Below are positions 1 through 239 of a stretch of 33,382 nucleotides of DNA, piece by piece. Origin of the DNA: a virus (lineage: Duplodnaviria > Heunggongvirae > Uroviricota > Caudoviricetes). A program made the position numbers and the translations under genes. Below the pieces are notes generated by a model that was given only the letters and a program-made list of their open reading frames with translations, was not told the origin of the DNA and made no database searches. Each line of letters starts with the position of its first letter. Positions within the stretch are counted from its first letter, which is position 1. The stretch lies in the IMG/VR virus record IMGVR_UViG_2874945390_000012. The stretch is one strand, 5' to 3'.

Positions 1-116
1 ATGAAAGGTTATCTCGGAAAGTATCAGGATATGGGCGTCACCATCTACCTGACTCCAGATGGTAAGCACGCTATCTCTGGTTACATGTACAACGAGAAAG
101 GTGAAAACCTGAGTAA
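1..116 (+). CDS. dsbG: Internal fragment of a host DsbG-like thiol:disulfide interchange gene, interrupted by the prophage end; the fused reading frame runs on to a stop at 161-163
   Basis: Frame +1 gives [38 protein letters not shown], which matches my recollection of the E. coli DsbG N-terminal domain. After ~nt 116 the frame continues into unrelated repeat-rich sequence ([15 protein letters not shown]). The ATG at nt 1 is an internal Met, not a gene start. Confidence 0.5.
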
Positions 117-198
117 AGCGCGCAAAATTATTCAAGATAGATATGGAATTCTTTCAAGATAAGCCAGAAGCGCGCATATGGAAGTTATTCAAGATAAA
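117..198. repeat. Prophage right-end (attR) repeats; candidate transposase-binding sites
   Basis: Three copies of TTCAAGATA(A/G) at 131-140, 153-162 and 189-198, and two GCGCGCA boxes at 118-124 and 170-176. TTTCAAGATAA resembles the TTTCACGATAAA core of the Mu R2 site as I recall it. Lies between the host gene fragment and the mom stop. Confidence 0.5.
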
Positions 199-228
199 AC
201 AGCGGCATTAACCGCTGCTTTTTTATTC
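199..228 (+). terminator. Rho-independent terminator-like hairpin (CAGCGG-cattaa-CCGCTG followed by CTTTTTTATT)
   Basis: 6-bp perfect stem, 6-nt loop, T-run on the + strand. Positioned to stop host read-through into the prophage; A-rich on the other side, so possibly bidirectional, acting after mom. Confidence 0.5.
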
Positions 229-239
229 ATTAAGTGGGA

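Follow-up and report, generated by a model that had tools for sequence, protein, structure and literature searches.

The first bases of a 33,382-bp stretch of phage DNA read as part of a bacterial gene, dsbG, and then pass into the end of a Mu-like prophage, which raises the question of how this joint arose and whether the phage cost its host the gene. The window, by which we mean this whole stretch, corresponds to positions 2,179,961–2,213,342 of CP026836.1, a sequence cited as Shigella boydii (PMC12817139), and ends at the start codon of the phage transposase. A preliminary description based on the letters alone had recognized a match to the N-terminal part of DsbG followed by phage-end repeats and a terminator, and had read this as the end of a Mu-type prophage, inserted near-randomly and adjoining a truncated dsbG. 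These points are borne out by the comparisons below, in which the dsbG identity, the repeats, the hairpin, the transposition genes and the many unrelated insertion sites of the phage family were all recovered. The expectations about what lies at the other end of the prophage fared differently.

Positions 1–113 (plus strand) hold codons 44–80 and the first two bases of codon 81 of host dsbG, at 100% identity to the annotated E. coli gene; the 43 codons before them are not part of the window and are out of frame with this remnant. Nucleotide identity to annotated dsbG is 100% over positions 1–116, a match held by 5,423 of the 5,426 complete E. coli genomes, and the remnant also matches the Pfam family DsbC_N (E = 4.4e-9, profile positions 31–69 of 70). 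The match reaches 116 because positions 114–116 (TAA) by chance equal the next bases of dsbG. The junction was fixed at 113|114 by aligning seven independent insertions (this copy and six others, in vgrG, the molR pseudogene, alanine racemase, fliH, nrfB and one unnamed ORF), which have common sequence from the terminus TAAAGCGCGC on. All seven right ends have the sequence from TAAAGCGCGCAAAATT onward in common, and the base before the terminus differs among them (G, A, C, T, G, A, A). The junction thus falls inside the range of about 109–117 given in the preliminary description, which had held that it could not be placed from the window alone; comparison across insertions has now placed it. 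A junction at 110 was considered and rejected, the VL40 alignment that begins there being a chance TGA-T match with one mismatch. The four host bases beside the right terminus are TGAG (110–113), which a simple insertion would repeat after the left end; there is no such repeat here. On the K-12 chromosome, the right flank maps down to 638,332.

Reading through the joint, on the plus strand, is a chimeric ORF of 53 amino acids (1–162), in which 38 DsbG residues, equal to residues 44–81 of the intact 248-aa E. coli protein, are followed by 15 residues encoded by the phage end. It lacks both a signal peptide and a thioredoxin domain; fusion and gene calling created it as a by-product, and as a gene it is of no interest. 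The exact product was found on one contig only, CP026836.1, among about 15 billion proteins. Partial chimeric DsbG' forms of 41–50 aa, as would be left at the ends of short-read contigs, were looked up in the protein collection and none was found, so that the right junction stands without independent support. Similarly, the dsbG::right-end junction occurs in none of the 5,426 complete E. coli genomes, a collection that excludes Shigella records.

Was the phage responsible for the loss of DsbG? Just upstream of the window, dsbG of the source genome carries a 1-nt deletion at codon 41/42 that shortens a run of five C to four (locus L008, 9873–10004). The frameshifted gene yields a 43-aa product (MLKK...DAPEE, then a stop), and its signal peptide and the mature protein are in different frames. 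Gene calling resumed at Met44 past the frameshift, which is the only reason why the window begins there. The same 43-aa product is present on 58 contigs, including those of phage-free relatives. In seven other loci that were retrieved, dsbG runs on unbroken after this point, and so do citR, ybdN and the genes as far as entA/entB, and two of these seven phage-free loci have flanks 99.7% identical to the source; the empty site reads GAAAACCTGAG|TAAC. By parsimony, the frameshift probably preceded the phage event, which would then have struck a gene that was already a pseudogene. The CPYC motif (residues 126–129 of intact DsbG) is absent at both junctions, coding ending at codon 81. From this gene content we infer that functional DsbG cannot be made, since the frameshift cuts the remnant off from its signal peptide and the thioredoxin domain with CPYC is missing. 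The preliminary description was therefore right that the lysogen has no intact dsbG, but the phage is probably not what inactivated it, given that the frameshift allele occurs in phage-free relatives.

The prophage is a Mu-like, transposable element of 34,523 bp, and its body occupies positions 114–33,382 (minus strand). Because the window stops at the transposase start codon, the left prophage end is outside it, 1,254 bp past the window end; between them lie a ner-type gene and a 187-aa gene in the repressor position, followed by the left end TATGACTAGGTAATTTATTCAAGATAACC. Both transposition proteins are encoded by full-length ORFs on the minus strand. The MuA-type transposase (31,286–33,382; 698 aa) matches Mu-transpos_C (2.1e-18) and HTH_Tnp_Mu_1 (4.9e-7), and the MuB-type transposition ATPase (30,260–31,210; 316 aa) is 41% identical to MuB and matches Phage-MuB_C (1.2e-23). 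At the opposite end of the window, also on the minus strand, are mom (240–935; 231 aa), whose product has 96% amino-acid identity to Mu Mom, and com (886–1071; 61 aa; Zn_ribbon_Com). Beside com is a gene encoding a DUF4376 protein (1196–1822, minus strand), at the place of gin and the invertible G segment in Mu; no invertase, gin or invertible-G-segment gene was called beside mom-com. The tail-fibre gene (1773–3171, minus strand) is broken into three ORFs of 127, 222 and 117 aa by a 1-nt and a 4-nt deletion relative to an intact 468-aa copy elsewhere (L040). Although its transposition genes are intact, the prophage may thus be unable to produce infectious particles.

Its relationship to Mu is uneven along the genome. 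Both phages have MuA- and MuB-type proteins and insert at many unrelated sites, yet the transposase here is only about 25% identical to MuA. From position 188 on, the sequence is 87% identical to the mom-distal region of Mu, with 87% DNA identity over mom-com (188–1061), and kil-gam is about 90% identical to Mu at the DNA level; the terminal 75 bp, with the putative binding sites, are unrelated to those of Mu. Shigella phage SfMu, D108 and other Muvirus members come from the same host group and have mom-com modules with 87–88% DNA identity to this one, but the megablast matches to them are confined to mom-com and part of the early region. Coverage of the query stays below 80% for every isolated phage in the collection. 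Judged on these comparisons, the prophage is a mosaic Mu-like phage rather than a Muvirus, as it lacks genome-wide similarity to Mu.

The prophage ends differ from those of Mu in sequence while resembling them in layout. The right end (114–199, plus strand; attR-type) begins with the terminus 5'-TAAAGCGCGC and carries three direct TTCAAGATA repeats at 131–139, 153–161 and 188–196, against 0.2 expected by chance. The left terminus, TATGACTAGG, was fixed by ten independent insertions with a variable preceding base (L010, 8747–8748). Measured from the terminus, TTCAAGATA occurs at offsets of 18, 40 and 75 on the right and 18, 89 and 141 on the left, all copies pointing inward, and the equal offset (18) of the first copy on both ends supports the assigned termini. 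We regard these repeats as putative transposase-binding sites. In Mu, the end sites are arranged as R1-R2-R3 and L1...L2-L3. The layout of the putative sites here is alike, with three repeats per end, close-set on the right, the first standing apart from the other two on the left, although the TTCAAGATA repeats are unrelated to the Mu sites. Both termini begin 5'-TA (right, n = 7; left, n = 10 independent copies), so that the element reads TA...TA where Mu reads 5'-TG...CA-3'.

Immediately inside the right end is a G+C-rich hairpin, CAGCGG-CATTAA-CCGCTG, with T-runs on both strands (200–224; stem-loop 200–217). It has a folding energy of -10.1 kcal/mol on the plus strand and -16.5 kcal/mol on the minus strand, and lies 23 nt past the mom stop codon on the minus strand. 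This hairpin is the predicted mom-distal terminator, and on the plus strand it would also block read-through from dsbG.

Copies of the phage family adjoin over 15 distinct flanking sequences, among them dsbG, vgrG, alr, fliH, nrfA/B and astE. Five simple insertions with both ends readable are bounded by 4-bp direct repeats (TTCA, GAAA, TAAG, ATTC and CAGG). In fliH and nrfA/B, the K-12 empty sites carry the four bases once, and the vgrG reading frame is restored only on removal of four bases; a 5-bp duplication was ruled out by the empty-site check. As far as these flanks tell, then, this phage family makes 4-bp target duplications, whereas Mu makes 5-bp duplications. In the papers that a literature search returned, the duplications described are of 5 bp (Mu), 6 bp (B3) and, together with TA-TA ends, 6 bp (Leptospira); none gives 4 bp for a Mu-like phage. 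The transposable prophages of Leptospira likewise have TA at each end, but differ in their 6-bp duplications and unrelated host, and are likened here by description only (PMC8705779).

Several E. coli genomes have more than one place matching these phage ends. In E. coli STEC388 (NZ_CP041425.1), the two halves of fliH lie at 1,939,240 (L004) and 2,852,469 (L024), each adjoining a phage end and with CAGG common to both. As the halves share CAGG yet are 913 kb apart, a large rearrangement appears to have followed insertion in this strain. The far phage ends were sought where a 35-kb prophage would put them, and a Tn7-like element and a lambdoid prophage were found there instead (L047, L048).

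With the ends and the family duplication established, the second junction can be read. The left prophage end adjoins fepB, not dsbG: fepB sequence continues to the last base ahead of TATGAC, and this left flank maps to K-12 up to 624,056. The gene order is cusA, pheP, ybdG, nfsB, ybdF, ybdJ, ybdK and entS into fepB on the left, and ahpF/ahpC into dsbG on the right. Both flanks are in K-12 order and orientation, with cusA-pheP-ybdG...entS on the left-end side and ahpCF-uspG-rnk-rna-cit on the right-end side. Compared with K-12, the prophage replaces 624,057–638,331 (14,275 bp), a segment holding the 5' part of fepB, entC, entE, entB, entA, entH, cstA, ybdD, hcxA, ybdL, ybdM, ybdN, citR and the 3' 505 nt of dsbG. 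To our knowledge, going by the K-12 annotation, no gene in this segment is essential. The flanking bases are TGAG on the right and GGCA on the left, with no repeat at 4 or 5 bp. The preliminary description had expected the remainder of dsbG at the other prophage end, on which it staked its reading, and a 5-bp target duplication there as well. What stands there is fepB, 14.3 kb away, and no duplication of either length, the family value in any case being 4 bp.

The short-read assembly ERR2287283, matching the source at 99.99% identity over 11.6 kb, also contains the fepB::left-end joint, as do three similar places. A look-up with Mom, aimed at the DNA beside the right end in the ERR2287283 lineage, gave other insertion sites only. 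The ERR2287283 contig, from Logan, ends 29 bp into the phage end (L034, 11635–11663), a break that could mean that this isolate has at least two phage copies or that the phage is actively transposing in it.

The locus therefore holds one complete element between collinear flanks that lie 14,275 bp apart in K-12, without a bracketing duplication. Collinear flanks, a distance of 14.3 kb in the ancestor and the lack of a duplication are together the signature of a prophage-adjacent deletion, and since both termini are intact to the last base, it was transposase chemistry, not random breakage, that made each joint. The account that we favor, at somewhat better than even confidence, is a two-step history of phage insertion followed by a transposase-mediated adjacent deletion through intramolecular replicative transposition. 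In Mu, two outcomes of such intramolecular transposition are known, an inversion between a pair of inverted copies and a deletion with one copy per circle (PMC5847225). Here, the phage would first have inserted at one of the two sites, fepB or dsbG. In a cell surviving abortive induction, one round of intramolecular replicative transposition would then have joined the phage ends to a nearby chromosomal target, splitting the chromosome into a viable circle (flank, prophage and new target) and an origin-less circle of 14.3 kb with a second phage copy, which would have been lost. Which site came first is weakly suggested to be fepB, as its joint occurs in an independent assembly and the dsbG joint only in the source. 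The outcome resembles Mu-mediated adjacent deletions, in which likewise a single copy is left joining an old flank to a new one close by and the host DNA that had separated the two has disappeared, although for this locus we infer the mechanism. Some points tell against the adjacent-deletion route. Recombination between two copies in direct orientation would produce the identical structure, and no intermediate genome turned up by which the two routes could be told apart. A second point is the ERR2287283 contig break, if it means more than one phage copy. A third is cis-immunity, which in Mu lowers, without abolishing, target use within about 1–25 kb of the ends (PMC2837660) and would count somewhat against this route as well.

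The main rival supposes two independent insertions in the same orientation, in dsbG and in fepB, followed by RecA-type recombination that removed one copy together with the 14.3 kb between them. It predicts the same final structure (intact termini, unrelated flanks and no duplication), and it gains from those E. coli genomes with more than one place matching these ends and from the Logan contig break 29 bp into the phage end, such as a repeat would cause. We nevertheless consider it unlikely, if well short of negligible: for two insertions at random to fall no more than 14 kb apart and in the same orientation in a 5.1-Mb genome, the a priori chance is about 0.3% by a rough estimate, only a single place with the exact transposase was returned for CP026836.1, and Mu-type cis-immunity disfavors a second insertion near a resident copy (PMC2837660).

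Other readings fare worse. The 14.3-kb segment might not have been lost: inversion or translocation between copies of the phage could have relocated it, with the 3' part of dsbG now beside another phage end. The distant fliH halves of STEC388 attest to rearrangements around this phage family, but the K-12 order and orientation of both flanks is expected after a deletion but not after a single inversion, and with one copy only of the exact transposase found in the genome we hold this improbable. An assembly artefact, in which CP026836.1 was mis-joined or collapsed across a repeated prophage, would suit the confinement of the dsbG::right-end chimeric product to one contig and the lack of its partial 41–50 aa forms in the collection. 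It is a shade more doubtful still, since CP026836.1 is a finished chromosome, the fepB::left-end joint was independently assembled from short reads of other runs, and the collapse of two direct copies presupposes a genome with both of them, which is improbable in its own right. A simple insertion into dsbG, with the rest of the gene and a short duplication at the other prophage end, accords with a right-end junction inside dsbG and with TGAG in the context CTGAG, which fits the Mu target preference NY(G/C)RN, but is refuted by a left end that adjoins fepB (flank ...GACTGCC) and carries neither dsbG sequence nor a TGAG/CTGAG repeat, leaving it next to no probability.

A second deletion lies about 1.6 kb past the left prophage end (L010, 7121–7124). 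It spans K-12 607,749–622,430 (14,682 bp), from hokE to the 5' end of entS, and removes hokE, entD, fepA, fes, entF, fepE, fepCGD and the 5' end of entS. There is no mobile element at this deletion, the joint has CCAG microhomology, and the deletion is common to the Logan run ERR2287283. On gene content, the two deletions together remove or truncate every ent/fep gene except for a 3' piece of fepB and most of entS, and the strain should accordingly be unable to make or use enterobactin. This is in keeping with gene decay in Shigella, where enterobactin genes are lost and reduction is driven by IS elements and deletions: here, dsbG is frameshifted, neighbouring genes are split and two deletions, each of about 14 kb, take out the ent/fep cluster. 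It departs from that pattern in that a transposable prophage, in place of an IS element or microhomology, bounds one of them.

The dsbG junction itself matters little, being an ordinary event in a gene that was probably a pseudogene already, and the modest twist is the 14.3-kb adjacent deletion that we propose. The locus carries two cautions for annotation. A prophage with mismatched flanks is easily mis-annotated as a simple insertion, and delimiting prophages by TG/CA ends and 5-bp repeats would miss this TA-ended, 4-bp family. For the host, a transposable phage marks a loss of 14.3 kb which, with the neighbouring 14.7-kb deletion, would have erased the enterobactin system in a Shigella lineage. 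Tentatively, and as a possibility to which we give less than even weight, this common E. coli/Shigella prophage may represent an undescribed lineage of transposable phages with TA-3' ends and a 4-bp stagger, which removed the remaining enterobactin genes of S. boydii by adjacent deletion. If so, a Mu-like phage would have been a direct agent of genome reduction in Shigella.
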